The notes beneath the pieces are model-generated. The model saw only the letters and a program-made list of their open reading frames with translations, was not told where the DNA came from and made no database searches. Below, piece after piece: positions 6,847 to 25,039 of a stretch of 64,000 nt of DNA. The stretch is from positions 640,001 through 704,000 of the forward strand of contig JAYFMW010000017.1 in the NCBI GenBank assembly GCA_042408215.1. Direction: 5' to 3'. Every line of letters begins with the position of its first letter. Within the stretch, counting starts at the first letter, position 1. The translations under genes were made by a program, and so were the position numbers. The stretch is from Microcoleus sp. GTDB lineage: Bacteria > Cyanobacteriota > Cyanobacteriia > Cyanobacteriales > Microcoleaceae.

Positions 6847-6889
6847 TCGCCAATTTGAGTTAATCTATTATTTTGATGAAGAAGATAAA

Positions 6890-7291: not shown

Positions 7292-7385
7292 AAATTGTGA
7301 AATTTGTCAAGCTTTCACCCTAAATCTGAATCCTGTTGTATATTCATAGTCTGTTGATTTATTCCGACAAGTCAGTACACAACCT

Positions 7386-10300
7386 ATGGTTCGAGAATTA
7401 GAGCGATCGAGTGCTAGTGAGAAACCCAACCAGTCCGATTTCCCCGAAACAGCACCCGCAGCCAATCCAGTATTTTTCAGGACGTACAGCCGCCGTACCG
7501 ACACGGGAAGAGAGACTTGGGCCGATGTGTGCGATCGCACCGTCAAAGGCCTCCAAAAACTCGGAGACCTCACCCCCGAAGAAACAGAGCTCCTACACCG
7601 GATGCAAAACCAGCTCAAAACCCTCGCTTCCGGCCGCTGGCTGTGGGTGGGCGGCAGCAAGTGGATCGAACAACCAGAGAATTTTTCCGGCGCATATAAT
7701 TGCTCCTCAACAAATATTCTCGACTGGAAAGCCTTCGGTTTGTTGATGGATTTGGCGATGATGGGCTGCGGCACCGGTGCAGTTTTGGAACCCAAATATA
7801 TCAACCAATTGCCACCGATTCGCAACCGCTTAACCGTGACAATGCAAGGCGAAATCGGCTCTACACCAGCTCAATTGCGCCGTCAAGAAACCGAAGTAAA
7901 AATAGCAGAAAAAACCGCAACTATTTATGTCGGAGATTCTCGCCAAGGTTGGGTAAAATCCTATCAAACTTTGCTGGAATTATCCACAGATGAAAGATTT
8001 GCGGGAGCCGTTGAAATCTTCATTGATTTGAGCGATGTTCGCCCGGTGGGAGAACCTTTAAAAGGTTTTGGCGGAGTAGCAAATCCGGTGAAATTGGCAG
8101 ACCTTTATCAGCGCTGCGCGGCCATCTTGAATAAAGCTCAAGGGCGGCAGTTAAATTCAGTAGAATGCTGCGTGTTGATAGATGAAGCAGCGGTCACAAT
8201 TGTTGCTGGAAATATCCGGCGCAGCGCGGGAATTCGTCAGTTTGATTCTGGTGATGAACTAGGGGCAAATGCCAAGGACAATCTCTGGCAACAAGATGAA
8301 AATGGCAACTGGAAAATAGATCCAGAACGCGATGCTTTGAGAATGGCAAATCACTCTCGTGTTTTCCATTACAAACCTACCTTAGAAGAATGTATTGATG
8401 CTGTAAGAAAACAGTATTATTCTGGCGAAGGTGCAATTCAATGGGCTGGTGAAGCTGTAGCTAGAGCTAACGTTGATTTAATTCCAACGCCGAGTCTTAA
8501 ACTTGAGTTTTTGAAAGCTTACAACGAAGGAAAAGCTAAACAGTGGTTCCAGGAAGGCTATCCTAATATGACTGCTGATGAATTAGAGCATCGGTCAGTC
8601 CGTTTGGGATTAAACCCGTGTGGTAAGTAATTTTGCCTCACGTTAAAAACCCCGCAAATTCGGAGAAGACTGAGATGTTAATTCCGAGGTAAGTAAGGGA
8701 ATTAAAAATCCTTTACCACCGTAGAGCGTACCAGGTGAACCTTCTTTTTTGAAGAATATAATCCTGGCAAGAGTGCGGGGCATTTACCACTAGAGTAAAT
8801 GAAAAAGTACGCCGAGCTACAGGTAAAATGGAATCTGTAGAACTAGAGGATAAAAAGCCTTTAGGATAACAAAACTGGAAATCATCGGCTCTAATTTTCA
8901 CTGTGTCAGTGGAGAGACTCTGCTAATTACTAGAGACGGACTGCATCAAATAAAGGATGTTGTTGGAACTGAAATCGAGATTTGGAATGGTCAAAGATGG
9001 AGTTCTGTCACACCATTTCAGACAGCGAGTGATACCAAGGTTGGACGACGCAAACTTTATCGTGTGAAGTTTGCTGATGGTACTTATCTGGATGCCACAG
9101 AATATCATCGTTTCTTTGTCAAGGATCGATTTGGTAAAGTTTACCAGGAAGTCCAAACCAAAGACTTGATGGATACAAGTCGATATAGCATTCATACTGA
9201 ACCTTTCACAATTCAGTATGAAGATGGCATGAATATCGATGCAAGTTATGCTTACACTTTGGGTGTGGCTGTAGGAGATGGAACTACAGACAAAAATGAT
9301 CATGCAAAAGTTCGACTTTACGAAGGAAAAATGGCATTGTCAGTAGCAGGAAATAAGTCGCCTGACAGAAACTATGACTATTTACCTGTTTTTACAGATG
9401 TAACTAACTTGAGCTTTTCTGGAGAATTTCTGAAAAGTTTGAAAGTTAACCCAGAAGCACTAAATGTAATTGCTAGCTGGAATCGGCAAGCAATTTTACA
9501 TTTTATTGCTGGATTAGCCGATACGGACGGATCGAATACCCATAGTAATGGTATCAGAATTTATATTTCTGACCGCGATCGCGCTTTCAGAGTTCAGTTA
9601 CTTTTGACCAAATGTGGTATTCGCTCATCGCTAAATCTTTCTGCTCATCAAGGAGCAGTTACTAATTACGGTGTCCGAAGTCGGGATTTGTACTACTTGC
9701 AAATTACTGACTGTGGTGAAATTCCTTGTCAGCGGTTAGATGTGAGCAAAGGGACGAAGGCTAAACACAAAGGTAAATGGCAAGTTATCAGAAGTGTCGA
9801 AGAATTACCAGGATTGCATGATACTTACTGTTTCAACGAACCAGAGTTTCATAAGGGAGTTTTCGGCAATACCCTAACTGGAAACTGTAACTTGGCTGAG
9901 GTTCACCTCAATCAAATAGACCCTTACAACTTCAAAGAACAAGAAGAAGCCTTCAGGGCCGGAGCTCTATCTGTCGCGGTACTTCTCAATCACAAATTTA
10001 GCGAACCTCGCTATCAATATAGCCGCGAATTAGACCCGATTGTCGGCGTATCTTTCACGGGATTGTTCGACTTCTTCGTTCATGCTTTTGGCGTTGAGTG
10101 GCTGCGCTGGTGGGTGGAAGGTCGCCCGCAAACCGAGCAGGGAATGGCGTTTAAACAACGGGAAGAAGAGTATTTGAGTGGTTGGTGCGAGATTGTGAAT
10201 GGGGTAGTTTGGGATTATTGCGATCGCCATTCATTAAAACGCCCAAATCGCTGCACAACCGTTCAACCATCGGGTACAAAATCTCTACTGACAGGTGCTT

Positions 10301-10932
10301 CTCCCGGCTGGCATCCCCCGAAAGCCCAGCGTTTCATTCGCCGAATCACTTTCGGCAAAAACGACCCTGTAGCCCTCGCCTGCATCGACTACGGATACAA
10401 CGTAATTCCATCTCAATCTGACAAAGATGAAGATGGTAATTTGCTAAACAATCCCTTCGATGAACGCTGTACAGAATGGCTGGTAGAAATACCCGTTGCT
10501 GTCAGTTGGGCTGATTTACCCGGTGCCGATGAAATTGACATCAACAAATTCTCAGCGGCGGCACAAATGGACTTTTATATGCAAGTGCAAAAGTTCTACG
10601 TGCGACACAACACCAGCGCGACGATTGAGTTGCGAGAAAATGAAATTGAAAGTTTGGGTACGCGGATTTATGAAGCGATTCGCGATGACGAAGGCTACAT
10701 TTCCGCCGCACTTTTAGCTCGGTTTGATGCTCTTGAAACTTTCCCGCGTTTGCCCTTTGAACCGGTGAACAAGGAAACTTATGAGACGATGTTGAAAGAC
10801 GTTTTAGTGCGTCGCCAAATTGATGTTTTTCAGGTGGCACTGAGTCGTTATGACTTGGGTGAAATGATGGATTCTGGGCCTGCGGGTTGTGATTCTGATA
10901 AGTGTTTGATGCCGGAGACTAAGGCTATTTAA
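7386..10932 (+). CDS. nrdJ: Class II (B12-dependent) ribonucleoside-triphosphate reductase; join(7386..8624,8878..10932), 1097-aa precursor containing an intein, 769 aa mature
   Basis: Exon 1 ends GLNPCG and exon 2 resumes EIIGSNFH, restoring NPCGE. After the intein it continues CNLAEVHL, TTVQPSGTKSLL and the C-terminal GCDSDKC. Confidence 0.93.
8625..8877 (+). ncRNA. Group I self-splicing intron (253 nt, no ORF) in nrdJ
   Basis: 5' exon ends in U8624 paired to G8635 in P1 and the intron ends in G8877. P3 CCCCGCA(8650-56)/TGCGGGG(8774-80); P7 GAGCGTAC(8724-31)/GTACGCC(8807-13); P8 CATTTAC/GTAAATG; P9 CTACAG/CTGTAG. Removal restores the frame. Confidence 0.92.
8902..9885 (+). mobile_element. 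Intein (328 aa) with LAGLIDADG homing endonuclease in NrdJ
   Basis: N-terminus CVSGETLLITRDG; endonuclease blocks TLGVAVGDG and FIAGLADTDGS; block F DTYCFNEPEFH; C-terminus TLTGN followed by Cys+1. Confidence 0.92.
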
Positions 10933-10945
10933 TAGCGTTGAATTC

Positions 10946-10978
10946 AAATCCCCCAAATAAATGGGGGATTTTTTTTTA
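10946..10978 (+). terminator. Intrinsic terminator after nrdJ
   Basis: AAATCCCCCA-aataaa-TGGGGGATTT followed by a T run. Confidence 0.7.
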
Positions 10979-11189
10979 TATCGTTTCTGGTTGCATCGGA
11001 ATGTTTGAACCGCAGAGAACACAGAGGACACAGAGGGAGAGAATAGAGATCTGAATAATTCCGATGAAGAGAGGATGTTATATCCTAGGGATAGGGCGGT
11101 TGAAACCGTGTTTACACACAGGAATTTCGCCTCTGCGGATTCAGAAATCAAGAGTCATCTAAAATCTAAAATATACAATTTAAAATGCC

Positions 11190-11843
11190 ATGAATTCAGA
11201 AACATTACGTCTATTTAAACGCCAATCTCCCGTGAATGTGCTCGGCCCTGGAAAACAAGCAGTTATCTGGGTACAAGGCTGTCGGTTTGCTTGTCCAAGT
11301 TGTATTGTGCCGGATTCTTGGGATGAGAATGCAGGAGATTTGGTAACAGTCACAGAATTAGTAGATTGGGTGCTAGCAGTACCAGGAATTGAAGGTGTTA
11401 CTTTCTCTGGTGGAGAACCGATGCTGCAAGCAGAAGCCTTATCCAATTTAGTAGATAAGCTGCGCGATCGCACAGACCTAGGCATCATGTGTTACACTGG
11501 TTATCGGCTAGAGCACCTAGAGCAACAGGGCACAGCAGCCCAGCAAACATTGTTGCAAAAAATAGATTTACTGATCGATGGACTTTACATCGAAAAACTG
11601 CACGGAGATTTACTCTGGCGCGGTTCAGCAAATCAGCGACTATTGCCTTTGACAGAGCGTTATCGCAGCTTGATTACTGCTCTATTATCTGATGCAGATA
11701 CATCCGCAGGACTCGAATTTTTCATGGGATTAGCAGGAGAAATCTCTTTTGTGGGAGTGCCAAATAAACCGGGATTTAGCCAAGAGTTTGAAGCTCGAAT
11801 GTTAAAGCGCGGAGTAATTGTGGAGCCAATTAAGCAAGATTAA
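11190..11843 (+). CDS. NrdG-like radical SAM / 4Fe-4S single-cluster protein
   Basis: VLGPG, WVQGCRFACPSC (CxxxCxxC), GVTFSGGEP, YTGY, DLLIDGLY, WRGSANQR. Confidence 0.88.
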   Translation: MNSETLRLFKRQSPVNVLGPGKQAVIWVQGCRFACPSCIVPDSWDENAGDLVTVTELVDWVLAVPGIEGVTFSGGEPMLQAEALSNLVDKLRDRTDLGIMCYTGYRLEHLEQQGTAAQQTLLQKIDLLIDGLYIEKLHGDLLWRGSANQRLLPLTERYRSLITALLSDADTSAGLEFFMGLAGEISFVGVPNKPGFSQEFEARMLKRGVIVEPIKQD

Positions 11844-11862
11844 TGGCGGGCAGGCATTTTAC

Positions 11863-12215
11863 CATTAGTGTCAATTTAAGCCTTAAATCCCTGAAAAATA
11901 TTGCTTTGACCTGAGTCTAGATCCCCCTAAATCCCCCTTAAGAAGGGGGACTTTGAGCAAGTTCTTGTCCCCCCCTTCTTAAGCAGGGCTGTTTCATTCT
12001 CAGGAAAACCAGGGTTTTGTAGGGGTCGTGCCCCCGTGCCGACCCTCCCCCACCGACAATCTATCGGTTATTTCAGAGATTGGGGCGGGCACGGGGGCAC
12101 CGCCCCTACGAGAGAATGAAACAGCCCTGCCTTCTTAAGGGGGGCTAGGGGGGATCGAACTTTAATAGTTAAACATTAATCTCTGACTGGGTTAGAAGTT
12201 AAGTTGACACTAATG
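11863..12215. mobile_element. Nested MITE: outer element with 17-bp TIRs, carrying a C/G-tract palindrome interrupted by an inner 146-bp MITE (11984..12129)
   Basis: Outer TIRs CATTAGTGTCAATTTAA / TTAAGTTGACACTAATG; inner perfect TIRs CAGGGCTGTTTCATTCTC with a 10-bp target duplication CCTTCTTAAG. Confidence 0.85.
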
Positions 12216-12296
12216 CCATCTTGCGTGTTCTGAAAAATCTTGCAACAACTTTCAACGTTTGAATACCCAAATCCCATTAATCAGGAGAAAAAATAG

Positions 12297-13586
12297 ATGA
12301 GTAGCAGCAGCCACAAAGAAGCTCAAGCTCGGTTAGCAAGAGAAAGACAAGAAGCAATTGAACGGGAACGTGAGCGCAAAGCCGCAGAAGAAGCACGAAT
12401 TCGAGCGGCCGCGGCCGAACGAGAACGCCTTCAACGTTTAGAAAAGCTGAGAAATCAGTCGATCGCCCAAACTCAAGCCACCATCGCCAAAATACAACAA
12501 AAATCACCAGAAATCTACCCCCAAGATAGCTCAGAACTCACCAAACGCGCTCAAAGTCTCATCAATCACCTCGGTGGAGTTACAACCGAATATCAACTCC
12601 AAGAAACCATCCAAGAATTGCCCAAAATCGAACAAGAACTCGATCGCGCAATTACCCGAAAACGCCGCGACGACGAAGAGAAAAAACGCAAAGCCGAACT
12701 AGAAAAACAGCAGTTTGAGCTCGAAGAACTAGAACGGGAAATAGCCCAAATCCCCCAAGCAGACGCGATTAAATTCGATAGCGCCGGCCGCACAGCAGCC
12801 CAAACAGCCCTCAGTGCTCTCAGAAGTGCGATCGCCTCCGGGAACCCCCAAACCGCGCGATCGCCCTTAAACACTGCCACAGCAGCAGTAGAACAGCATA
12901 TCGCATCCGTAGCTAAAAACCGAGCCCAATGGGAACAACAAAAAGCCGCAGCCGAACAAGCCCTTGGCGAACTGGAAGACCTGATTATTGGTTTAAAAGC
13001 CGACCCGGTAGCCAAGCGGTGGCAAATACATTTAATAGATGAATTAGCCGCCAAATTGCCAACAGGAATTGCCACCATAGAAGCAGAACAATTTGACAAA
13101 CCCGCCCTGATTCTAGCAGCAGCAAAAACCCAAGAACAAGAAATCATCGCAACAGCAAATGCAGCCCAAATCCAAGCCGACCAGCGAGATTACATAGCCA
13201 AAAGTATCGCTGAAACCTTAGCAGAAATGGGCTTTTTTGTCAACGAACCTCAACTAGAAGATTCACGCTATCCCAACGCAGCGCTAATACTGAAAGCTGC
13301 TACTAATTCAGGTAAAGGAATTAGTATCAGCGTACCAGTAGAAGGCGAAGTTTGGTACAACGTCGATGGCTATTCCAAAACCACCGAAGCAGCCGTGGGA
13401 GGAGGAACAGCAGCCGTTTGTGACGAAGCCGAAGAAGTGCTCACAGAAATGCACGATCGCCTCGGAGCAGAATTCGGCATCAACATGACCGAACTCACCT
13501 GGGAAGGAAAAGACCCCGATCGGATAATACGAAAAGCCGACGACTTACCCAACAACGACCAACAACAAAACCGCACCGGAAACTAA
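12297..13586 (+). CDS. Coiled-coil protein with a C-terminal alpha/beta domain reminiscent of DUF2997
   Basis: About 290 aa rich in E/R/Q/A, then IAETLAEMGF...ISISVPVEGEVWYNVDG...CDEAEEVLTEMHDRLG. Confidence 0.75.
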   Translation: MSSSSHKEAQARLARERQEAIERERERKAAEEARIRAAAAERERLQRLEKLRNQSIAQTQATIAKIQQKSPEIYPQDSSELTKRAQSLINHLGGVTTEYQLQETIQELPKIEQELDRAITRKRRDDEEKKRKAELEKQQFELEELEREIAQIPQADAIKFDSAGRTAAQTALSALRSAIASGNPQTARSPLNTATAAVEQHIASVAKNRAQWEQQKAAAEQALGELEDLIIGLKADPVAKRWQIHLIDELAAKLPTGIATIEAEQFDKPALILAAAKTQEQEIIATANAAQIQADQRDYIAKSIAETLAEMGFFVNEPQLEDSRYPNAALILKAATNSGKGISISVPVEGEVWYNVDGYSKTTEAAVGGGTAAVCDEAEEVLTEMHDRLGAEFGINMTELTWEGKDPDRIIRKADDLPNNDQQQNRTGN

Positions 13587-13730
13587 CCAAAACCAACCCA
13601 AAAATAGCCCCCAAATTCATCCGGGGGCTAACACCAAACCCCTTGACATCGGAATCATTCATCTCCCTCCTCTCTTCCTCTGCGCCCTCTGCGCCCTCTG
13701 CGGTTAAATCAATCCAAAATCCCAAATAAA

Positions 13731-15725
13731 ATGAACAGCCAAAACATCACATCATCACGCTGGATACAAGAATTTGAAAAACAACTATACCGCCGCCAAC
13801 ACATAGTTTTATACGGAAACATAGACGACCAATTCCTCTGGCGCGGCAGCTATCAAGGAATTCACGAATTCCTCACCAACTACTTCCAAGACCTCAACTT
13901 CCAGCTAATAGTCCGCTACGACTCCATAGACGGATTCACCTTTGCTCGACCGGAAATGAGCGATCGCTTTGAACAAATAACCCGCACAGCCGCCACCCGC
14001 ATCAACCCCCAATTACAAACCCAGCCCGCCCCCGCAGCCCCAGCAGCACCCGCAAACCCAATGGCTCCACCCCCCCGTGGCAATCCCGGAGCAGTGGGCC
14101 CCAGAATGAACACCAGGGTCTCCCTAGAAGACGCCTTCGGGAACCTGCGAGCCCTCGTCTCCCAAACCGCTAGCCCAGCCGCCGCCGTCGTCGATTTAGC
14201 CGACATGATCACCTCAGACGCCTCCCGGTACAGCGGCGAAGAGCGAAACGCCCTAGTATTGCTGAAAAAAAGCACCCTAGAAGCATCCCTGATCCGAGAA
14301 GGCGATTTAGCCGGTTGTCGCAACACTTTAGTCATCCTGGCTAGAGACTTACAGCGAGTCCCAGAATGGCTATACCACAACAATCCTACGGTGTCAATGA
14401 TTCAGGTATCACGGCCCAACAAAGATGAACGACGGCTGTTTGCTCAGCGGTTCCTCACAGGTTTCTATGGGGGCGATCGCATAAACAACAAACCCAGCGC
14501 CCCAGGAACACTCTCAGAGCTCGACAACCTCGCGGAAGAATTTGCTGAACTCACCGAAAACTTCCGCGCCCTAGAACTAGATGCACTGCGGGCCACATCC
14601 TGGCGCGATCGCATTTCAGTCAAACCCAAAGAAATGTGGCGGCTCATCGACTTCTACAAATTTGGGGTGCGAGATGACCCCTGGGAGCGCATGGGAGCCG
14701 AAAAGGTTTTGCAAGCCAAAACAGAGCTTCCACGCACCGTCATCGGGCAACCAAGGGCAGTACAAGCCGTAACTACCATGCTAACTACCGCCAGAATCGG
14801 ACTGACGATCGGCGGGAGCAGCGGGCGGAGTGGTAAACCAAAAGGCATTTTCTTTTTTGTTGGGCCCACCGGAGTCGGGAAAACCGAATTAGCCAAAGCC
14901 ATGACCAAATTAGTATTTGGGGACGAAAAAGCCTTCGCCCGGTTTGATATGTCAGAATACAAAGAAGAACACGCGGCGGAAAAATTAGCCGGAGCTCCTC
15001 CCGGTTTTGTCGGTTACGAAGAAGGGGGACAATTAACCAATCGAGTTATGGAAAACCCCCACAGTATATTGCTGTTTGACGAAATAGAAAAAGCTCACCC
15101 CAAAGTATTGGATAAATTCCTGCAAATCCTGGAAGATGGGCGACTCACCGACGGAAAAGGACAGACAGCATATTTCAACCAAACAGCAATTATTTTCACC
15201 AGCAACATCGGCGCATCAGATTTCACCGATCCTCAAACCGGTGCGAAGATCCGGGAAGGTATCATGGAGAAAGTAAAAGCCGGAAACGCCAATGACTTCT
15301 CCTGGGACCAAGTAGAAAACCACTTCCGCGCCGAAGTAGATTGGCATTTCACCACTCGCATCGGTCGCGCCGAACTGCTGAACCGCTTAGGAGATAATAT
15401 AGTAGTATTTGACCTGCTGCGGCCAGAGTTCATCGAATTAATCGGAGACAAATTTTTAAAACAACTCTCCGAATGCGCCATAGAAAAGTATCGACTCACC
15501 CTAAAATTCTTGCCATCAACGCTCAATGTTTTGAGGCAAAAAATGGAACGGGGAGACAATTTACTCTTTGGCGGGAGGCGAATCAAATCACTTTTAGAAA
15601 CCCTAGTCGAACGGCCATTGAATACGTGGATATTCGAGAACATTCCAGACACAAACCAATTGGCTGGACAAACCCTAGAAATCGGCATCAACAACGATGA
15701 AACCATCGAGGTAAGAGAAATATAA
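13731..15725 (+). CDS. ClpB/ClpA D2-like AAA+ ATPase with a degenerate N-terminal AAA module
   Basis: VIGQ, Walker A GPTGVGKT, RFDMSEY, pore loop GAPPGFVGYEEGG, Walker B LLFDEIEKAH, LEDGRLTDGKG; the N-terminal half has YGNIDD instead of a Walker A. Confidence 0.9.
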   Translation: MNSQNITSSRWIQEFEKQLYRRQHIVLYGNIDDQFLWRGSYQGIHEFLTNYFQDLNFQLIVRYDSIDGFTFARPEMSDRFEQITRTAATRINPQLQTQPAPAAPAAPANPMAPPPRGNPGAVGPRMNTRVSLEDAFGNLRALVSQTASPAAAVVDLADMITSDASRYSGEERNALVLLKKSTLEASLIREGDLAGCRNTLVILARDLQRVPEWLYHNNPTVSMIQVSRPNKDERRLFAQRFLTGFYGGDRINNKPSAPGTLSELDNLAEEFAELTENFRALELDALRATSWRDRISVKPKEMWRLIDFYKFGVRDDPWERMGAEKVLQAKTELPRTVIGQPRAVQAVTTMLTTARIGLTIGGSSGRSGKPKGIFFFVGPTGVGKTELAKAMTKLVFGDEKAFARFDMSEYKEEHAAEKLAGAPPGFVGYEEGGQLTNRVMENPHSILLFDEIEKAHPKVLDKFLQILEDGRLTDGKGQTAYFNQTAIIFTSNIGASDFTDPQTGAKIREGIMEKVKAGNANDFSWDQVENHFRAEVDWHFTTRIGRAELLNRLGDNIVVFDLLRPEFIELIGDKFLKQLSECAIEKYRLTLKFLPSTLNVLRQKMERGDNLLFGGRRIKSLLETLVERPLNTWIFENIPDTNQLAGQTLEIGINNDETIEVREI

Positions 15726-15767
15726 AATCCCTAGACTCCGCCCCGCCCAGAAACCCAAAAAACTCTT

Positions 15768-16217
15768 ACTCCCCCCCTTAGCAAGGGGGGGCTGGGGGGG
15801 GGTTAAAATACTCAGCAACCAACAAAAAACCCCAAAAAACTTCTAACTCCCCCCCCTTAGCAAGGGGGGGCTGGGGGGGTTAAAATACTCAGCAACCAAC
15901 AAAAAACCCCAAAAAACTTCTAACTCCCCCCCCTTAGCAAGGGGGGGCTGGGGGGGTTAAAATACTCAGCAACCAACAAAAAACCCCAAAAAACTCTAAC
16001 TCCCCCCCTTAACAAGGGGGGGCTGGGGGGGGTTAAAATACTCAGCAACCAACAAAAAACCCCAAAAAACTTCTAACTCCCCCCCTTAGCAAGGGGGGGC
16101 TGGGGGGGGTTAAAATACTCAGCAACCAACAAAAAACCCCAAAAAACTTCTAACTCCCCCCCTTAGCAAGGGGGGGCTGGGGGGGGTTAAAATACTCAGC
16201 AACCAACAAAAAACCCC
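15768..16217 (+). repeat. Six tandem ~77-bp units with core CTCCCCCCCTTAGCAAGGGGGGGCTGGGGGGGGT
   Basis: Cores at about 15770, 15848, 15925, 16001, 16078 and 16155. Confidence 0.92.
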
Positions 16218-16226
16218 TATACAACA

Positions 16227-16628
16227 ATGACAAAACTTTACAACAAAAGCTCAGAAAAATTTAAGCGGCAGAAGCTTCGCAGAGAAATGACAGAAGCTGA
16301 AAAGGAACTATGGAAACGAATCAGAAACAGACAGCTTGAGAATTGTAAATTTCGCAGACAATACAGTGTAGCAGCATTTGCGATCGACTTTTATTCACCA
16401 GAAATCAAGTTAGCACTAGAAGTTGATGGTGACAGCCATTTTGTAGAGGGCGCTGTAGAATATGATGCAGAAAGGCAAGAGTTTATTGAGTCGGCAAAGA
16501 TTAAATTTTTGAGGTTTACTAATGATGATGTTTATCATAATTTGGATGGGGTTTTAGAGGTGATTGTGGAGGGGATTAAATCGTTGAGAACATCGGGTGT
16601 TTTACCCCCCCCAGCCCCCCCTTGCTAA
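16227..16628 (+). CDS. DUF559 (Vsr-like) endonuclease domain protein
   Basis: LRREMTEAEKELW, KFRRQ, IDFY..LALEVDGDSH, YDAER, LRFTNDDV. Confidence 0.9.
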   Translation: MTKLYNKSSEKFKRQKLRREMTEAEKELWKRIRNRQLENCKFRRQYSVAAFAIDFYSPEIKLALEVDGDSHFVEGAVEYDAERQEFIESAKIKFLRFTNDDVYHNLDGVLEVIVEGIKSLRTSGVLPPPAPPC

Positions 16629-17133
16629 GGGGGGGAGCAAGAGTTAGTTTCCCTTGCTAAGGGGGGAGCAAGAGTTAGAAATGTAGATGAGATTTAATCG
16701 TTTATTGCATCAATTCTTTTACCCCCCCCCAGCCCCCCCTTGCTAAGGGGGGGAGCAAGAGTTAGTTTCCCTTGCTAAGGGGGGAGCAAGAGTTAGAAAT
16801 GTAGATGAGATTTAATCGTTTATTGCATCAACTCTTTTACCCCCCCAGCCCCCCTTGCTAAGGGGGGAGCAAGAGTTAGAAATGTAGATGAGATTTAATC
16901 GTTTATTGCATCAACTCTTTTACCCCCCCAGCCCCCCCTTGCTAAGGGGGGGAGCAAGAGTTAGAAATGTAGATGAGATTTAATCGTTTATTGCATCAAC
17001 TCTTTTACCCCCCCCAGCCCCCCCTTGCTAAGGGGGGGAGCAAGAGTTAGAAATGTAGATGAGATTTAATCGTTTATTGCATCAACTCTTTTACCCCCCC
17101 AGCCCCCCCTTGCTAAGGGGGGGAGCAAGAGTT
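16601..17133 (-). repeat. Six units (plus two half cores) carrying the reverse complement of the upstream core
   Basis: ACCCCCCCCAGCCCCCCCTTGCTAAGGGGGGGAG at about 16604, 16721, 16839, 16922, 17007 and 17093; the linker differs from the left array. Confidence 0.92.
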
Positions 17134-17208
17134 CAACCGACAATCTCACCAAAACCCGGTTTCTGAGCCCAAGTAACAACCACCAACCAACAAAACCAAC
17201 TAAAAATC

Positions 17209-19029
17209 ATGTACCCAGAAAGATTTTGGAGAAAACTACAAGGCGAAACAGTCAACAACGAATACTACCTCCAAGAATACCTAGGATGTGGAGCCTATGG
17301 AGCCGTATACAAAGCAGATCAAGTAATCATAGACCAATTCATCAGAGAAATAGCAATCAAACTAATCGCCTTAGAAGAAGATGAAACCAAAGCCAAAAAA
17401 CAACTAAACGAACTAATAGCAGCAGCCAACTTGCTACACGAAAACATCATCCGTAGCTACACAGTGGGCTTGTGCGAAATCAAAGGAGACGAATATTTAT
17501 TCATCGTCATGGAAATCGCCGCAATCACCCTAGAAAAAAAACTAAAAACCGGAAAACTCTCCATAACAGAAGCCAGAGAAATAGTCAAAGCCACAGCAGC
17601 AGTATTACACTACCTACACAATTTAAATCCGCGAAAAGTCCACAGAGACATCAAACCAGCCAACCTGCTATATGCAGATAACAAATGGAAAGTATCAGAC
17701 TTAGGACTGCTGCGAGAAATCGGCACCAACTCACTGAGAACCCAAGATAGGAGAGGAACACCATTTTATGCTCCCCCAGAATCCTACAAGGGAGTAGTAG
17801 GAACAGCATCGGATATCTGGTCACTGGGAATCATGACAGCAGAAATCCTGACAGGAAGTCTACCATTCACAGGAAAGACAGACGAAGAAGTAATGAAAAA
17901 AACCCTAGACGAACAGCCGGAAATAGACTGGTCAAAAATACCAGAACCATTCACGGCCATAGTCAGAGGATGCTTGGAAAAAGAGCGAGAAAATAGATGG
18001 ACAGTAGAACAAGTATTGACAGCATTAGAACTAAAACAGGACTTACACACTCCGACCAAAGAAACCGGGTTTTTTACTGAATCTGTTGATAACAACGAAG
18101 AATCTGATAAAAACCCGGTTTCTGAGCCCATCCTAGCCCCGGCCTTTATTAGTCGAATTGATCAATTGCTACGATCAATATCCACACCAGCCCCAAAACC
18201 AACAAAACAAACACAAACCTTTCAATTCCAAGTAATCACAGTCAACGCCAGCGGACAAATCATCAAAACAGAACAGCGACAAGCCGAATACTTTAGTGAA
18301 AACCTAGGGCGCGGAGTCAGCTTAGAAATGGTACAGATTCCCGGCGGCACATTTATGATGGGTTCCCCCGACAATGAAGAAGGTAGAAGTAATGACGAAA
18401 GTCCGCAGCATCGAGTCACAGTACCGACTTTTTTTGCAGGGAAATACGCCATCACCCAAGCACAGTGGGAAGCTGTCATGGGAAACAACCCATCGGATTT
18501 CAAAGGTGAAAAACGTCCTGTGGAAAATGTATCGTGGGATGATGCTGTCGAATTCTGTAAGAAACTCTCGCAAACAACCAGGAAAACATATCGCTTGCTG
18601 AGTGAAGCGGAATGGGAATACGCTTGTCGCGCCGGAACTACAACACCTTTCTATTTTGGGGAAACCATTACCCCAGAATTAGTTAACTACGACGGAAACC
18701 ACCCCTACGCCAAGGCCTCCAAAGGACTTTACCGCAAAGAAACAACAGATGTGGGGAGTTTTCCACCTAATGCGTTTGGATTGTACGATATGCACGGCAA
18801 TGTTTGGGAATGGTGCAGCGATAAATGGCACGATAATTATAGTGGCGCACCAACTGATGGAAGTTCTTGGGAAACTGGTGGATCTGAATACCGGGTGCAG
18901 CGTGGTGGTTCCTGGAGCACCTATGCGGTCGATTGCCGCAGTGCCTATTGTCTCTACTGCTCGGTGGACTACAGGTTGAGGAACAGGGGTTTTCGCGTAG
19001 CGGTTGCGTCGGTTTCTTCCTTGTCCTAG
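17209..19029 (+). CDS. Ser/Thr protein kinase fused to a C-terminal FGE-sulfatase (CLec-fold) domain
   Basis: [33 protein letters not shown]; then [45 protein letters not shown]. Confidence 0.93.
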
Positions 19030-19140
19030 TTTTCCCCGCGAGGACTCTTCGTTTTCTCTGCTCTTTTGCTCTCTTGCGCTTTGCGCTCTTAATTCTTTTC
19101 CCTTTCTGCCGCTTGCGGCTCGATTTTTTTTTCGACTGTG

Positions 19141-19631
19141 CCCAAGAAACCGGGTTTTTTCCGAAATCTATCGGTGACAACCAAAAATCTGATAAAAACC
19201 CGGTTTCTGAATCCTCGACTGTGCCCAAGAAACCGGGTTTTTTCCGAAATCTATCGGTGACAACGAGGTATTTGGCAAAAACCCGGTTTCTGAGCCCCAT
19301 GCGTAAATCCAAGAAACCGGGTTTTTGCCTAAATCTATCGGTGACAACGAAGTATTTCGGAAAAACCCGGTTTCTGAGCCCCATGTGTAAATCCAAGAAA
19401 CCGGGTTTTTGCCTAAATCTATCGGTGACAACGAAGTATTTCGGAAAAACCCGGTTTCTGAGCCCATGTGTAAATCCAAGAAACCGGGTTTTTGCCTAAA
19501 TCTATCGGTGACAACGAAGTATTTCGGAAAAACCCGGTTTCTGAGCCCATGTGTAAATCCAAGAAACCGGGTTTTTGCCTAAATCTATCGGTGACAACGA
19601 AGTATTTCGGAAAAACCCGGTTTCTGAGCCC
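19141..19631. repeat. REPIN-like array: six ~84-bp doublets AAGAAACCGGGTTT...AAACCCGGTTTCT
   Basis: Same REP as the arrays flanking the RAYT gene at 45438. Confidence 0.9.
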
Positions 19632-19709
19632 CTCGATTCCGCCCAGTGACAACTAAGTCATGTAAAATAACAAACAAGCCAGACAGAATTTCCACTAAAA
19701 AATAACATC

Positions 19710-20942
19710 ATGTTCAACCTAGAACTTGACTGGGATCTACCAGCTAAAATCAAAGCCAAAAACACAAAACACATCTTGCGAGTGCGAATTCGTCCCCAAT
19801 CCGGTGGCCCCGGTTTACCTCTGCGAATCGCCATCGCCCTGGATACCAGCCAATCAATGGGAGGAGAAAATCTTCAGCGCGCTAAGGAAGCTTGTCGGGC
19901 TGTTGTGGCTCAATTGCGCGATCGCGATCGGCTTTCCTTAGCCGGCTTCTCCACCAGTGTAACACCATTGCTGCAATCTTTACCCGGTGGTGCCGCCGCC
20001 CTTCAACCCGCCAATACCGCCATTTCCCGACTGACAGCGGAAGGTGTTACCCGCACCGATTTAGCCTTAGATTGGATAGTCAACGCCCTACCCCCAGAAG
20101 CCGGAGTCGCGCGGGTGGGAATCTTGATTACTGACGGTCATGCTACCACATCCCAAGGAAGGATTTTAGATGATACGGGGGTTTTGATCGATAAATCCCA
20201 ACAACTAGCCAACCTAGGTATAATTCTCAACACCGTCGGATTGGGAAATGCTAATAATTTTAATACAGCATTATTGACAGATTTAAGCGACAAAGGGCGA
20301 GGCTCATTTATATTTGCAGATACCCCAGCCAGCCTGGAACCCCAACTCCAAAAAAGACTCACAGAATGTCAGGCGATCGCCACCGAAAACACCGTCATCC
20401 AGCTAATACCTAGCAACGGCGTTATCATCAAAGGCTTTTGTCGTTACCGCCCCGAATATTTGCCCCTAGAAGAAACAGCGAAGAATCAATTAACCATCGG
20501 TGCGATCGCCGCCAATACCCCCACGGATTTATTAATCGAACTCGAAATTCCCCTAGGAGGATTTGACGAACCTACAGGTAACAAAGACGTAATTTCTGTA
20601 GAGCTCACAGCCAAGGGAATGACCAATCCCGTGAGAGCAAAAGCTGCCATTAATTATACAACAAGTCCTACTGAAGCGCAAAAAGACAACAAGGAAATCA
20701 AGAACGACTATTGCTGCTGGATGATTAACCTCACAAACAACGAATTGAGCCGCACCGACGACGCCAATCGGCAAAAAGAACTACTGGAAGAATCCCGATA
20801 TAATGCTGAAAAAGCCGGAAAGATTGATATAGTTAATCAAATCGACCAGCAGCTAGATGACCTGGAAAAAAGCGGCAAATTAGACCCCAACAGAACCACC
20901 AAATTGCTGAGAGATTCACGAGACTTAGGAGGTAAAGAATGA
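19710..20942 (+). CDS. von Willebrand factor A domain protein
   Basis: MIDAS motif ALDTSQSM...T...LITDG, VGLG, then a C-terminal beta and helical extension. Confidence 0.88.
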   Translation: MFNLELDWDLPAKIKAKNTKHILRVRIRPQSGGPGLPLRIAIALDTSQSMGGENLQRAKEACRAVVAQLRDRDRLSLAGFSTSVTPLLQSLPGGAAALQPANTAISRLTAEGVTRTDLALDWIVNALPPEAGVARVGILITDGHATTSQGRILDDTGVLIDKSQQLANLGIILNTVGLGNANNFNTALLTDLSDKGRGSFIFADTPASLEPQLQKRLTECQAIATENTVIQLIPSNGVIIKGFCRYRPEYLPLEETAKNQLTIGAIAANTPTDLLIELEIPLGGFDEPTGNKDVISVELTAKGMTNPVRAKAAINYTTSPTEAQKDNKEIKNDYCCWMINLTNNELSRTDDANRQKELLEESRYNAEKAGKIDIVNQIDQQLDDLEKSGKLDPNRTTKLLRDSRDLGGKE

Positions 20943-21343
20943 GTAGTGGCTTTGGGTCCGATCCAATTTATCAAGGACGACTGACACCAGACAATGCTAA
21001 ACTATTGGTACGCAATAGCAGCAGCGCCAACCAGAAATTTCCCCTGAATCAAATCCGAGCAATTATCGGTCGCAGCGATGATGCTCCCATGAGTATAGAA
21101 GACATCGATTTAACTGAATGCAAAATTGACAATAAATCTGCCATCTCTCGCCGCCATGCGGTGATTGAATGGGTAGAAGGTAAACTGCAAATTATTGATT
21201 TAGACAGTACAAACGGTACTTTTGTCAATGGGAAAAAACTCCTTACCACAGCACCGAGGCAACCGTCAAGTCCTGAAATTCTCAAAAGTGGTGATATCAT
21301 AAAACTGGGCAATATTGAACTAGAGGTAATAGCTGATGGATAA
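20939..21343 (+). CDS. FHA domain protein
   Basis: IIGR, ISRRHA, DLDSTNGTFVNG, LKSGDIIKLG; ATGA overlap with the vWA gene. Confidence 0.92.
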   Translation: MSSGFGSDPIYQGRLTPDNAKLLVRNSSSANQKFPLNQIRAIIGRSDDAPMSIEDIDLTECKIDNKSAISRRHAVIEWVEGKLQIIDLDSTNGTFVNGKKLLTTAPRQPSSPEILKSGDIIKLGNIELEVIADG

Positions 21344-22133
21344 TTCACAAGCAAAACCGGAATTGACCTTTGCTGGCAAAACTGACTGTGGCAAAGTTCG
21401 CCCCCACAATGAAGACAATTATCTGCTAGAATCCTGGCCGGAAACATCTACTGTACTGGCCGTAGTAGCCGATGGCATGGGGGGACACAGGGGAGGAGAA
21501 GTCGCAGCCAAAATCGCTGTAGATACCTTTAGAGAGCTGCTAAAAACACGTTTACCTGAGACATCTCAAGAGCGATATAATCTATTGCTAAAATGTTTCT
21601 ACGATGCCGACAAAGCCATCCAAGAAGCCGCCTGCGAAAACTACAAATTATTTGGGATGGGAACAACTATAATAGCGGCGATTGTATCTCCCACAGAATA
21701 CATTCATCTCTATGCGGGCGACTGTCGTTTGTATCATTTTACCCCAGGAAATAAACCCTACATTACAGCGGATCATTCAGTGGTGCAGGTATTGCTAGAA
21801 TTGGGGCGGATTACGGAGGAAGATATTCCAACTCATCCGATGCGTTCGGTGGTAAACTCTTGTTTGGGCGGCAAAGAAAAAAGTCAATTTTCGGTTGACC
21901 CAAAATGGGATAGTGAAGACTTACCTGTGGTGCGAAAATGGTCTGCGGGTGATGTTTTGTTGTTGTGTAGCGATGGGTTGAATGGAGAGGTTAGTAATCA
22001 AGAATTGACAAGTCTTGTGGAGGAGTTTGGAGACTCACCGGAAAGGCTAACTGAAGAATGTGTGAACAAAGCTTTGGAGCAAGGCGGTAATGATAATATC
22101 ACGGTTATTGCTATTGTGAATTTTGGTAGATAA
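21336..22133 (+). CDS. PP2C-family Ser/Thr phosphatase
   Basis: RPHNED, VADGMGGH, GMGTT, GDCRLY, LCSDGL, GGNDNITV; overlaps the FHA gene. Confidence 0.93.
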   Translation: MDNSQAKPELTFAGKTDCGKVRPHNEDNYLLESWPETSTVLAVVADGMGGHRGGEVAAKIAVDTFRELLKTRLPETSQERYNLLLKCFYDADKAIQEAACENYKLFGMGTTIIAAIVSPTEYIHLYAGDCRLYHFTPGNKPYITADHSVVQVLLELGRITEEDIPTHPMRSVVNSCLGGKEKSQFSVDPKWDSEDLPVVRKWSAGDVLLLCSDGLNGEVSNQELTSLVEEFGDSPERLTEECVNKALEQGGNDNITVIAIVNFGR

Positions 22134-22140
22134 TATAGCG

Positions 22141-22550
22141 ACCAAAGAAACCGGGTTTTTTACTGAATCTGTTGGTGACAACTAAGTATTTCGTAAAAAC
22201 CCGGTTTCTGAGCCCCATGCGTAAATCCAAGAAACCGGGTTTTTTACTGAATCTATCGGTGACAACGAAGTATTTCGGAAAAACCCGGTTTCTGAACCCC
22301 ATGCGTCAATCCAAGAAACCGGGTTTTTTACTGAATCTGTTGGCTACAACGAAGTATTTCGGAAAAACCCGGTTTCTGAGCCCCATGCGTAAATCCAAGA
22401 AACCGGGTTTTTTACTGAATCTGTTGGTGACAACGAAGTATTTCGGAAAAACCCGGTTTCTGAGCCCATGCGACTCCGCCAAGAAACCGGGTTTTTTACT
22501 GAATCTATCGATGACAACGAAGTATTTCGGAAAAACCCGGTTTCTGACCC
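22141..22550. repeat. REPIN-like array: five ~84-bp doublets
   Basis: AAGAAACCGGGTTTTTT...AAAAACCCGGTTTCTGA units between the convergent PP2C and gdhA genes. Confidence 0.9.
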
Positions 22551-22566
22551 ATGAATCGCACTTTTG

Positions 22567-23853
22567 TCAACCGTTTATATAATAATCCCGTGTTCCCTTC
22601 GCATTCATCGCTTCTCCGAGTCGATTTAATCCGTACACGTAAGCAGCGGTTCTCATACACACTGACAACTCGTCCGCTATTTTCCAAATTGCCTCAGTTT
22701 CTTCGACCATTTTATGCTTCAACCGCTGGTTGACTTCCTCCAGTGTCCAATAAAGTCCGCTGCGATTTTGCACCCATTCAAAATAACTAACTGTTACGCC
22801 TCCCGCATTTACTAAAATATCAGGTATTACCCGAATTCCCTTGGCTTCTAAAATCAAGTCAGCAGCGGAATCAATGGGCCCGTTAGCTACTTCAAAAATA
22901 AACTTAGCTTTGATGCTATCAACGTTTGCTTCGGTTATTTGATTTTCCAAAGCTGCTGGAATTAGCACGTCTACATCTAAGGCTAAAATTTCCTGATTTG
23001 TCAAGATTTCGTGTTCGACAATATTGCAAACAGAGCCTTCGCAGTAAATAGCTTTGATTCCTTTATTCGACTCTTTAAAACTGCGTATGCTGGGAATGTC
23101 TAGGCCTTGTTTAGCATGAATTCCCCCTTGGGAATCGCTGACTGCAACGACTTTGTAACCTGCTTTCCAGAGGAGTTCTGCTATTTCTGCACCGGCATTG
23201 CCAAAACCTTGGACTGCTACTGTTGTATCTTGAGGATTTATCTCAAATTTGGCGAGAATATTTTGTAATACAAAGAAAGCGCCGGTTGCTGTTGCGGTAT
23301 CTCGACCTAAACTACCACCAATTGTTACGGGTTTACCAGTTACAACTGCTGGACAAAGTTGCCGTTTGATGATATTATATTGATCCATCATCCAACCCAT
23401 GATCATGGGATTGGTGTAGACATCTGGTGCTGGAATATCGACATCCGGGCCGATGAAATCTGCGATCGCATCTACATAGCCCCGGCTCAACCTTTCCAAT
23501 TCCAGTTTAGATAATTCCTTGGGATTTAAAGTGATTCCTCCCTTGGCTCCTCCAAAGGGCAAGTTCAAAACTGCACATTTAAAAGTCATCCAAAATGCTA
23601 AGGATTGCACTTCGTCAAGGGATACTTTTGGATGGTAGCGTACTCCTCCTTTAGATGGGCCTCTGGTATTGTCGTAGCGCACTCGATAGCCTTGGAAAAT
23701 TCGCAGGGAACCGTCGTCCATCCGCACGGGAATTGATACTATTAAGCTAGATTTGGGATGTTTTAGCCGTTCGATCGTATCCTCGGAAAGGGATACATAT
23801 TTTAAGGCTCGTTCTAATCGGCGGCTGGCATCGTTAAATAATGATTCTGTCAT
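22567..23853 (-). CDS. gdhA: Glutamate dehydrogenase (Glu/Leu/Phe/Val dehydrogenase)
   Basis: GPSKGGVRYH, GGAKGG, DIPAPD, GFGNAG, NAGGVTVSYFEWVQN; likely start MTESLF at 23853. Confidence 0.93.
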   Translation of the reverse strand: MTESLFNDASRRLERALKYVSLSEDTIERLKHPKSSLIVSIPVRMDDGSLRIFQGYRVRYDNTRGPSKGGVRYHPKVSLDEVQSLAFWMTFKCAVLNLPFGGAKGGITLNPKELSKLELERLSRGYVDAIADFIGPDVDIPAPDVYTNPMIMGWMMDQYNIIKRQLCPAVVTGKPVTIGGSLGRDTATATGAFFVLQNILAKFEINPQDTTVAVQGFGNAGAEIAELLWKAGYKVVAVSDSQGGIHAKQGLDIPSIRSFKESNKGIKAIYCEGSVCNIVEHEILTNQEILALDVDVLIPAALENQITEANVDSIKAKFIFEVANGPIDSAADLILEAKGIRVIPDILVNAGGVTVSYFEWVQNRSGLYWTLEEVNQRLKHKMVEETEAIWKIADELSVCMRTAAYVYGLNRLGEAMNAKGTRDYYING

Positions 23854-24081
23854 AATAGGAAAAAAGTTCGGCAACGGATTCTGTAACGGATTTAACGGAT
23901 ACTTCGACACTTCGACTTCGCGAGCGTACAAGTGTAACGGAGGTCAGGGAGAGGGAAGTCGGGAGAAGGGAGAATAAATATCTCGGCTAACCTACTGGTT
24001 TTCCGATACTTTTTAATTTAATCACAATCTAGGTTTGATTTTGTCAACTGTCAACTGTCAACCGTCAACCGTCAACCGTCA

Positions 24082-24224
24082 TACCAATTTAATGGGTCGT
24101 TACATATATCTCGATCCCCCTAAATCCCCCTTAATAAGGGGGACTTTGAGCAGAATCTTGTTCCCCCCTTATTAAGGGGGGTTAGGGGGGATCAGATTCT
24201 ACGGGGCCTCATAAAAAACTGGTA
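24082..24224. mobile_element. 143-bp MITE with TACCAATT-type ends and 3-bp TSD (TCA), inserted in a TCAACYG STRR tract
   Basis: tca|TACCAATTT...AAACTGGTA|tca; internal C/G-tract palindrome; inverted relative at 51493..51654. Confidence 0.8.
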
Positions 24225-24427
24225 TCAACTGTCAACTGTCAACTTGTGTCGATCGCCAATCTCGCATTCCAAAGCAGAAATTAAGCATATAGACTTAAAA
24301 TAGAGGGTGATATCTCAACTCAAGACAAAACTTGAGTTCGATCGCTCAAATCGAAGCCAGCCATTAGGGGAATTAAATTCTGAGATCGATCGACTAATTA
24401 ACTCACCTTCTTAACTCAATAATTTTT

Positions 24428-25039
24428 ATGATTGCACTCCTAGCCGCCCTCTCTGCGTCTGCGGCGGGGGGTATGAGAATTGCCCTGCCCCTGCTGTTAA
24501 TTGGTTTGTTGCGAATCGACAAACTGTGGTCGGAAATACCTTTATTGTCGCGGCTTCACCCCCAAGTGGCGATCGCAATTTTGGTGAGTTGGTCGCTGTT
24601 AGAATTATTTGCTTCTAAAACCTTTACGGGACAGCGGGTGCTGCAAATTGTGCAGATTATTTTCAGTCCCATTGTAGGAGCGATTATGGGAGTTGCGATC
24701 GCAAAGGTAAGTTCGATCGACGAAATTGTTGCTCACCCTTGGATGCTGTGGATTATTGGTGTGGTCGGAGGTTTGTTGGCTTTAGTGCTGCAACTGGTAC
24801 AAGCTGGATGGTTTTACCGGCTGAGGGGTTTACCACTTTGGGTGATTTTTGTCCAAGATGGTTTGTGCATTGCTTTGGTGTTGTTTGCTTTTGATGCGCC
24901 GCGCCAGGGTGGATTGATTGCGATGCTGCTGCTGTGGCTGGCAATTCGCAGTTCTAAAGAGTGGTATCGCTGGTACAGGAGTCAAGCAACACTAGGCTTA
25001 TTGGGAAATCCCCGCCAAGGTAAACGCGATCCAGATTAA
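24428..25039 (+). CDS. DUF4126-like membrane protein
   Basis: Hydrophobic 203-aa ORF with SAAGGMRIALPLL and ELFASK. Confidence 0.7.
   Translation: MIALLAALSASAAGGMRIALPLLLIGLLRIDKLWSEIPLLSRLHPQVAIAILVSWSLLELFASKTFTGQRVLQIVQIIFSPIVGAIMGVAIAKVSSIDEIVAHPWMLWIIGVVGGLLALVLQLVQAGWFYRLRGLPLWVIFVQDGLCIALVLFAFDAPRQGGLIAMLLLWLAIRSSKEWYRWYRSQATLGLLGNPRQGKRDPD

Follow-up and report, generated by a model that had tools for sequence, protein, structure and literature searches.

Several described systems unite some of the protein families treated here. The threonine-phosphorylation pathway of the type VI secretion system (T6SS) is composed of PpkA, PppA, Fha1 and ClpV. Triads of a vWA protein, a PP2C phosphatase and a Ser/Thr kinase (TerY-P) are said to have been described by Anantharaman et al. 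in 2012 and Gao et al. in 2020, and a vWA-kinase-FHA-PP2C operon is reportedly present in Deinococcus (DRA0331-0334, a preprint). Kaur et al. (2020, eLife, PMC7159879) describe FtsH-type vWA-MoxR ternary systems, in whose simple subtype a tandem AAA+ protein with a dead first module is accompanied by a vWA protein and a radical S-adenosylmethionine (radical-SAM) enzyme whose proposed target is encoded by another gene; the class is given there as rare in cyanobacteria. The same paper describes GAP1-N2/double-GTPase conflict systems, one theme of which joins kinase and PP2C to a standalone vWA protein (PMC7159879). Here we analysed a stretch of 64,000 nucleotides from Microcoleus sp. (assembly GCA_042408215.1, contig JAYFMW010000017.1, positions 640,001 to 704,000 of the forward strand; hereafter the window), in which a cassette of seven genes lies between nrdJ and gdhA and encodes a radical-SAM activase, a coiled-coil (CC) protein, an AAA+ unfoldase, a Ser/Thr kinase, a vWA protein, an FHA protein and a PP2C phosphatase. 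The simple FtsH-type subtype is its nearest description in the literature searched. The gene set itself is not described in that full-text literature, including parts of PMC7159879, PMC8195603 and a 2026 ParA preprint. Five protein accessions of the family were not found in the supplement text of PMC7159879 that was searched; the neighbourhood tables lie outside that text, so an overlap is possible.

The cassette is real, conserved and mobile, is without a published description that could be found, and is placed here among the NTPase-centred conflict systems that contain vWA proteins. With a probability of about 0.55 it is a single biological-conflict system of several genes that moves horizontally, its role being most likely anti-phage or anti-invader, and among the possible functions kinase-gated defence is the likeliest. 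The defence role is supported indirectly, by a genomic slot shared with an Argonaute locus, by patchy distribution and by nuclease, CRISPR and viperin-like neighbours in distant variants. That the seven genes make up one undescribed system, as a preliminary description of this DNA had proposed, finds strong support in their co-conservation across phyla, their position in a single insertion or deletion (indel) and the lack of a description in the literature searched.

The assembly (7.36 Mb in 30 contigs) is cyanobacterial, and its nearest named relatives belong to Microcoleus, whose AAA+ proteins are 92-96% identical to that of the window. Eight plus-strand genes, the seven components and one DUF559 gene, fill the interval between nrdJ (7386-10932) and gdhA (22567-23931, minus strand). 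The NrdG/PflA-like radical-SAM activase of 217 aa (11190-11843; Fer4_12, E 1.2e-32) starts 257 nt past nrdJ, which is followed by a strong hairpin with a T-run. It is followed by the CC protein of 429 aa (12297-13586), the two-module AAA+ protein of 664 aa (13731-15725; AAA_2 at residues 369-522, E 5.4e-49), the kinase with a C-terminal FGE-sulfatase domain (17209-19029; Pkinase E 8e-44, FGE-sulfatase E 8e-57), the vWA protein of 410 aa (19710-20942), the FHA protein of 134 aa (20939-21343) and the PP2C phosphatase of 265 aa (21336-22133). Genes, domains and coordinates of the seven co-oriented accessory genes all agree with the preliminary description, as do the overlaps of vWA with FHA (4 nt) and of FHA with PP2C (8 nt). 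The other intergenic gaps within the cluster measure 144-680 nt.

To follow the cassette in other genomes, an AAA+-seeded scan of one genome per species was made, which gave 247 relatives, and the best 80 were retained (79 loci, numbered with L; genomes are numbered with G). A full-length AAA+ orthologue at at least 45% identity was present in 57 loci, and the components were counted by tblastn (E<1e-10) with coverage thresholds; many counted loci are mutually related, and the counts are not independent. Among the 26 loci with at least 5 kb upstream and at least 6.5 kb downstream of AAA+, CC was found beside AAA+ in 24, kinase in 20, vWA in 19, radical-SAM and FHA in 18 each, and PP2C in 8. 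With at least 3 kb upstream (40 loci) CC was present in 35 and radical-SAM in 25, and with at least 3 kb downstream (42 loci) vWA was present in 30 and FHA in 27. The gene-neighbourhood analysis thus shows the components co-conserved across phyla, the loci belonging to Cyanobacteria, Armatimonadota, Abditibacteriota, Riflebacteria, UBP7/UBP9 bins, Pseudomonadota and Bacteroidota; the lack of co-conservation that would have spoken against a single system was not seen. In its compact form the cassette has about 7.5 kb with the order radical-SAM, CC, AAA+, vWA, FHA, PP2C, kinase and gaps of -4 to about 200 nt (e.g. L064, L072, L023); a 4-nt overlap between AAA+ stop and vWA start occurs in 10 loci, and radical-SAM adjoins CC in most compact loci. 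The kinase comes last in compact loci and lies between AAA+ and vWA in the window lineage (L007; L103 has a partial kinase match after AAA+). For the clustering of open reading frames (ORFs), 12 loci that were short or nearly duplicates were removed by hand, which left 45 of the 57; no other widely conserved gene was found, and what clustered besides was either antisense shadows or genes specific to a lineage, in at most 8 loci. A metagenome scan seeded with the C-terminal domain of CC gave six loci: all four real orthologues adjoin radical-SAM and/or AAA+, and two weak matches are without any other component.

The distribution of the cassette is patchy. Among the family's 121 species genomes, 8, one of them the own genome, contain the N-terminal domain of AAA+, as do 4 of the 55 other genomes of the genus. 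One Microcoleus assembly carries two divergent copies, at best 73% identical (L006, L012), and both orthologues and distant relatives lie on plasmids, among them an orthologue on the Geminocystis plasmid pGM01. In a quick tree the Armatimonadota AAA+ proteins fall in at least three groups mixed with other phyla.

Comparison of the window with same-genus genomes by blastn delimited the island. In one of them (G030) window positions 9884-10936 correspond to L099 4371-5423 and positions 22563-23861 to L099 5498-6796, with the ends of nrdJ and gdhA 74 nt apart. Since nrdJ abuts gdhA in this genome, the block missing from it, 10937-22562 of the window, is one 11.6-kb indel; because this indel includes the radical-SAM gene, that gene belongs to the island and not to nrdJ. 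In another genome (G054) the same slot (L097 5335-10889) holds 5.9 kb with a 775-aa Piwi protein, a PD-(D/E)XK nuclease and two HTH/Peptidase_M78 genes, which by its domains looks like a prokaryotic Argonaute locus.

Distant AAA+ relatives (33-41% identity) still adjoin a small radical-SAM gene and show what is constant in the cassette. In L075 and L077, CC, AAA+ and vWA are followed by a standalone FGE-sulfatase-like protein, GAP1-N2, radical-SAM and DO-GTPase2, and L077 adjoins RAMP genes. In L074 and L076 no CC homologue was detected; after AAA+ and radical-SAM come genes for a nuclease of the beta-CASP metallo-beta-lactamase type, a metallophosphatase and a kinase of 1289 aa, and L074 has tubulin-like and vWA genes on the upstream side. 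The Geminocystis plasmid and L014 carry radical-SAM, double-GTPase (DO-GTPase) genes, CC and AAA+, the phospho-switch being replaced; there are two such GTPase genes on the plasmid, and in L014 one was detected. On an Acinetobacter plasmid an SF1-helicase-like protein, a PIN protein, a CC homologue (profile match 93.8%, E 1.8e-7), AAA+ and radical-SAM are followed by a nucleotide kinase and a second radical-SAM gene. The constant core is the triad of CC, AAA+ and radical-SAM; its partner modules are interchangeable, and the kinase-PP2C-FHA-vWA set is one among several.

The AAA+ protein is single-copy at full length in its own genome. The match to ClpB/ClpA/ClpV covers residues 323-656 and corresponds to their second module; this part retains both Walker motifs (A and B) and a GFVG pore loop, and the active module is closer to AAA_2 (E 5e-49) than to the FtsH-type PF00004 (E 1.6e-5). 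The ClpB model TIGR03346 reaches 236 bits against a cut-off of 1232 over this part only, and the NCBIfam ClpV1 model matches at 1e-56. Module 1 (residues 1-320) matches no family, and the only Walker A of the protein lies in module 2. An AlphaFold2 (AF2) model of residues 1-322 (pLDDT 88) gave 226 PDB matches at E<=0.001, of which those listed are mostly AAA+ ATPases (Vps4, FtsH, Rpt, Cdc48); a feature search with this domain returned unnamed clusters only. Two stacked rings are thus predicted, a dead one and a motor of the ClpB type. Module 1 also carries a Pro-rich loop, which may be a docking site.

The radical-SAM protein has an extension of about 65 aa at its C-terminus and carries the CxxxCxxC, GGEP and GPG motifs. 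Its best NCBIfam model is NrdG (TIGR02491, E 3.8e-30) with 104.9 bits, under the cut-off of 126.1, followed by PflA (TIGR02493, E 2.4e-16) with 59.9 bits against 231.75, while QueE (1e-6) and pVip (E 2.9e-4) match weakly. Entries of the PFL-activating enzyme (PFL-AE) were the only solved relatives found (best E 2.6e-7). Across 30 orthologues G19, P20, C31, C35, C38 and G74-G75-E76-P77 do not vary, and the N-terminal GPG-x-R loop varies little or not at all; PFL-AE holds its peptide substrate through this loop. The absence of a glycyl-radical partner noted in the preliminary description holds only within the cluster, where no protein matches the Gly_radical or NRDD domains; the sole Gly_radical gene of the genome is a PFL on another contig (C5) with its own activase adjoining. 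No match to the NrdD/NRDD family was found in this genome. Two more NrdG-like radical-SAM genes, 43-47% identical to that of the cluster, are present in it (L088, G000:C19:74084-77488; L089, G000:C26:17238-20639). Each adjoins a gene for a coiled-coil-rich protein, followed at L088 by two P-loop GTPase-like genes; neither profile comparison nor HMM search detected the C-terminal domain of CC at the two loci.

The CC protein is composed of a charged helical region of about 285 aa and an unclassified C-terminal domain of 145 aa, and its C-terminal tail, disordered but conserved, may be a docking site. Its only matches are weak coiled-coil ones (TPR_MLP1_2, E 0.0098; JetC, E 1.2e-4); no Pfam or NCBIfam family fits the protein, and the C-terminal domain matches no Pfam family even at E 10. 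This domain occurs in 295 clusters among 1.84 billion protein representatives. G312, Y354, G358, C375 and W402 are invariant in 44 sequences (alignment A1). The AF2 model of the domain (pLDDT 82) has an alpha-beta-alpha pattern of a helix, five strands and a helix, with G358 at a hairpin tip, where it is followed by an aromatic residue and resembles the glycyl-radical motif. The Y-x-V-x-G-aromatic motif is invariant in the 44 close orthologues and present in 141 of 150 representatives, and the cysteine is kept in 147 of 150 and in every distant homologue seen. The idea of a glycyl-radical motif was downgraded, the motif being absent or changed in distant homologues. Foldseek with the domain model found nothing in PDB at E<=0.001. 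Prediction of a complex of this domain with the radical-SAM protein, 4Fe-4S and SAM scored 0.03 against a mark of 0.32, which speaks neither for nor against an interaction.

The components of the phospho-switch retain the motifs expected of such proteins, and their catalytic and ligand sites look active. The kinase has the HRD and DLG motifs. Its C-terminal domain, termed CLec in the preliminary description, is an FGE-sulfatase domain, a fold which we take to be C-type-lectin-like. This part of the kinase is variable, being FGE-sulfatase in cyanobacteria and beta-helix-like or Sel1/TPR-like elsewhere, the latter two assigned by eye from sequence. A C-x4-C pair in the window kinase resembles the FGE active site; it is not conserved in orthologous kinases, and the idea of a catalytic FGE was dropped. 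The vWA protein has DxSxS within a complete metal-ion-dependent adhesion site (MIDAS), with D45, S47, S49, T114 and D142 conserved in 37 orthologues, and a C-terminal region of about 200 aa without known family. In the FHA protein the GR, SxxH and NGT motifs are present, and G44, R45, S70, R71, H73, N92, G93 and T94 are conserved in 33 orthologues; it matches T6SS TagH of NCBIfam at 5.9e-8. The PP2C protein has DGMGG, DG and DN, scores 194.8 bits against a cut-off of 230 with the Stp1-type model, and has its metal-binding Asp residues conserved in 17 orthologues. The window thus has writer, reader and eraser, as the preliminary description had it, with these motifs intact; elsewhere PP2C is often missing (present in 8 of 26 loci).

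From these features the following course of events may be proposed. The variable C-terminal sensor of the kinase, FGE-sulfatase-like here, would bind a ligand derived from an invader or from damage, and the kinase would then phosphorylate a threonine on a component of the system. The FHA protein would read this phosphothreonine and, with the translationally coupled vWA protein, whose MIDAS site would bind an acidic ligand, recruit or license the AAA+ hexamer. The dead ring of AAA+ may serve as a docking platform and the ClpB-type ring as a motor that threads or remodels the CC protein, exposing its C-terminal domain to the activase. The activase might then abstract a hydrogen near the Gly358 hairpin or Cys375, giving a protein radical or modification as a toxic or signalling output, and PP2C would reset the switch. 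We infer every step of this mechanism, the defence role and the substrate of the activase, the last being the weakest link. That the CC/AAA+/activase triad is a protein-radical immune effector, with the radical near one of these two residues, seems to us doubtful and is offered tentatively. If it is true, such a radical, formed where the cell is aerobic or oxygenic, would lead to backbone cleavage or to reactive species, an irreversible suicide or alarm output; glycyl- or thiyl-radical chemistry would then be seen beyond anaerobic metabolism, and in immunity, for the first time.

A number of observations weigh against a single mobile defence system. The composition varies, with PP2C in 8 and radical-SAM in 18 of 26 loci and all six partners of AAA+ in 7, and the seven-gene form has no recognisable toxic effector. 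In PADLOC no system model fits: vWA and FHA have no match at E<=0.001, and the matches of AAA+ to PDC-M37B and DolB (E 7e-18) extend over the ATPase core only. Distant CC homologues lack the Gly358-aromatic hairpin or have it altered (L075, L077; the Acinetobacter protein has Asn), and the model of the C-terminal domain stays at background in VIA-align wide (best Z 7.7, a KA1 domain). No relative was found in viral contigs, and the genes flanking other loci are mostly housekeeping, the examples of a defence context being anecdotal. The cyanobacterial AAA+ proteins form one clade in the quick tree (SH-aLRT 100); therefore the patchiness within the phylum may reflect loss as much as transfer, and recent transfer into cyanobacteria is not claimed. 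In the window the compact gene order is disrupted by repeats, DUF559 and the relocated kinase, and neither promoter-like sites (13 found, 17.2 expected) nor terminator-like sites (20 found, 19.3 expected) are enriched.

Some of these points would also suit a non-immune role, in which phosphorylation controls the remodelling of a coiled-coil scaffold in envelope, motility, development or stress, like archaeal ArnA/ArnB or the T6SS pathway. Sets of FHA, vWA, kinase and phosphatase proteins regulate cellular machines in other organisms, and here many hosts are filamentous cyanobacteria, the flanks are mostly housekeeping and the cyanobacterial sequences are monophyletic. We nevertheless regard this role as unlikely, the cassette being present in no more than 8 of the family's 121 species genomes and carried by plasmids, its slot holding an Argonaute locus in a sister genome, and its variants swapping the regulatory module for GTPases or adding nucleases. 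Another reading is that the cassette regulates a contractile injection system (CIS), as the kinase/PP2C/FHA/ClpV set regulates type VI secretion. The ClpV1 (1e-56) and TagH (5.9e-8) matches and the vicinity of some Nostocales and Lyngbya loci to CIS tape-measure, Cdc48-like AAA+ and Tle1-like phospholipase genes fit with this, but CIS genes are not near most loci, the conserved neighbours include no family of sheath, tube or baseplate proteins, and the own genome has no VipB match and a single sheath-like gene on another contig, which makes such regulation very improbable.

Within a conflict system, the radical-SAM enzyme could instead make or destroy a small molecule, such as a viperin-like modified nucleotide or a QueE-like deazapurine, or consume SAM, with CC and AAA+ as sensor or scaffold. 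A small-molecule substrate has to be taken seriously as a rival, since L074 and L076 retain AAA+ and radical-SAM without detectable CC protein; the conserved CC glycine is not universal, pVip (E 2.9e-4) and QueE match weakly, and the Acinetobacter plasmid triad adjoins a nucleotide kinase and a second radical-SAM gene. The enzyme is, however, far closer to protein activases (NrdG 3.8e-30 and PflA 2.4e-16, against QueE 1e-6), PFL-AE is its only solved relative found, the GPG-x-R loop is invariant or nearly so, and the gene adjoins CC in most compact loci, so we hold this alternative improbable, to about the same degree as the non-immune role. Least credible of all is that the genes are chance neighbours and the radical-SAM protein an accessory of the ribonucleotide reductase NrdJ. 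The long intergenic gaps (144-680 nt), the distance of only 257 nt from nrdJ and the resemblance to a class III reductase activase could be read so; however, the gaps are repeat arrays, and nrdJ itself is a B12-dependent enzyme (TIGR02505), a reductase class which needs no activase. The proposal was rejected, being contradicted by the cross-phylum neighbours, as radical-SAM accompanies the cassette across phyla and nrdJ lies beside it in only 2 of 79 genome loci (L006 and L007, close Microcoleus) and one metagenome contig (L103), and by the sister genome G030, where nrdJ is without radical-SAM.

The long gaps inside the cluster are occupied by tandem arrays of 77-118-nt hairpin repeats. Six 77-nt G/C-hairpin repeats (D2) lie at 15754-16217 upstream of the DUF559 gene, and an array of 85-118-nt repeats (D4, D6, D7) lies at 16600-17133 downstream of it; the two arrays are mutually inverted (I1, 47-nt arms, 96% complementary). 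Six 83-nt hairpin repeats (D1, D3) are located between kinase and vWA (19138-19635), and five 84-nt repeats of the same family (D1, D3) form the right edge of the island (22139-22555). A single repeat copy of the 77-84-nt kind stands in frame within the kinase gene (18053-18129, 77 nt, D3) and encodes part of the linker between kinase and FGE-sulfatase. The DUF559 gene (16227-16628, plus strand, E 5.3e-29; Vsr-like endonuclease fold) is not a component: none of the 79 related loci contains it, which marks it as the intruder that had been suspected, and the inverted arrays flank it. A 73-nt G/C-hairpin repeat (D8) in the gap between radical-SAM and CC (11916-11988) has a second copy at 24109-24181 with 88% identity. 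Its contig depth is very high in each of the four RNA-library runs, contigs join both copies, and it is a dispersed repeat that may be highly transcribed; membership in the system is not claimed. Rfam at the gathering threshold found no family in window positions 6000-25000. RNA-library contigs of three studies cover parts of radical-SAM, CC, AAA+, DUF559, kinase and vWA at a likeness of at least 90%. These contigs are metagenomic, probably from related strains and possibly with DNA carry-over, and are blind to level, strand and operon structure; they are a weak hint of expression of the cassette genes.

The nrdJ gene on the left of the island is itself interrupted. A segment of 253 nt (8625-8877) separates ORF 1 (stop at 8630) from ORF 2 (start at 9064); its excision restores a single nrdJ frame, and the allele of G054, without the segment, is one ORF of 1095 aa. 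The segment folds well (-68.1 kcal/mol, z -4.2), one contig each in RNA-library runs X2 and X4 jumps exactly from 8624 to 8878, and Rfam gave no convincing family match for it. It may be a small self-splicing intron or a strain-specific insertion. An intein with a LAGLIDADG domain follows at about 8905-9883; this segment of about 980 nt is missing in the same-genus alleles G030 and G040, and G030 has a different insert of about 970 nt slightly upstream of the intein site. Further downstream, IS200/IS605-type insertion sequences are dispersed in an otherwise housekeeping stretch: a TnpB fragment (38532-39080), a Y1 transposase (45438-46001) and a full TnpB (49959-51275). In Nostocales, Oscillatoria and Lyngbya loci (L016, L019, L022, L026, L030) the recurring neighbours of the cassette are Cdc48-like double-AAA proteins, ArsA-like ATPases, Laminin_G_3 proteins, Tle1-like phospholipases and haem peroxidases, and in L030 a contractile-injection-system tape-measure gene lies near it.

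If the cassette is immune, it would represent a new effector logic, in which an unfoldase is coupled to a protein-activating radical-SAM enzyme, and its core chemistry may be new to immunity. A function would then be given to an unannotated domain family (295 clusters), to an AAA+ clade labelled 'AAA family ATPase', and to several 'orphan NrdG-like' genes of cyanobacterial genomes without class III reductase. One effector core would be wired to interchangeable regulators, namely a Ser/Thr phospho-switch, double-GTPases or nuclease-bearing sets, a design that parallels modular eukaryotic innate-immune signalling. The compact versions of about 7.5 kb are small enough for direct testing.

Compared with known systems, the cassette shares with Dodola (DolA and ClpB-like DolB) a ClpB-like ATPase (DolB model E 7e-18), but this match is limited to the ATPase core, the other partners differ and a DolA-like protein is lacking. 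Like PflA-PflB and NrdG-NrdD, it combines CxxxCxxC, GGEP and GPG-x-R in the activase with a Gly-aromatic hairpin and Cys in the neighbouring protein; unlike them, it has no Gly_radical or NRDD domain, its scores are below the cut-offs, its glycine is not universal and its hosts include oxygenic phototrophs. With the T6SS phosphorylation pathway it has in common the occurrence together of kinase, PP2C, FHA, vWA domain and a ClpB-family unfoldase. It differs from that pathway in having radical-SAM and CC and no linked secretion or sheath genes, and from ClpV in the dead first module and the lack of the ClpV N-domain.

The same four domain families as in TerY-P triads and vWA-kinase-FHA-PP2C operons are found together, with MIDAS and catalytic motifs complete. 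In the cassette, unlike TerY-P, this switch is an accessory module of a larger set with AAA+, CC and radical-SAM, and its vWA and FHA proteins match no PADLOC model at E<=0.001, while PP2C matches PDC-M21C only and the kinase generic kinase models, the presence of TerY-P in that library being unconfirmed. Variants of the cassette carry DO-GTPase and GAP1-N2 genes like the GAP1-N2/double-GTPase systems; the window cassette has no GTPase, and the AAA+/CC/radical-SAM triad is unmentioned in the section on these systems. From the FtsH-type ternary systems the cassette differs in having no conserved MoxR gene (45 loci), a ClpB-D2/AAA_2 motor in place of FtsH, a kinase/PP2C/FHA switch and a vWA protein without the N-terminal helical domain. 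Common to both are an inactive N-terminal and an active C-terminal AAA+ module, vWA and radical-SAM proteins, helical standalone proteins and enrichment in multicellular bacteria.

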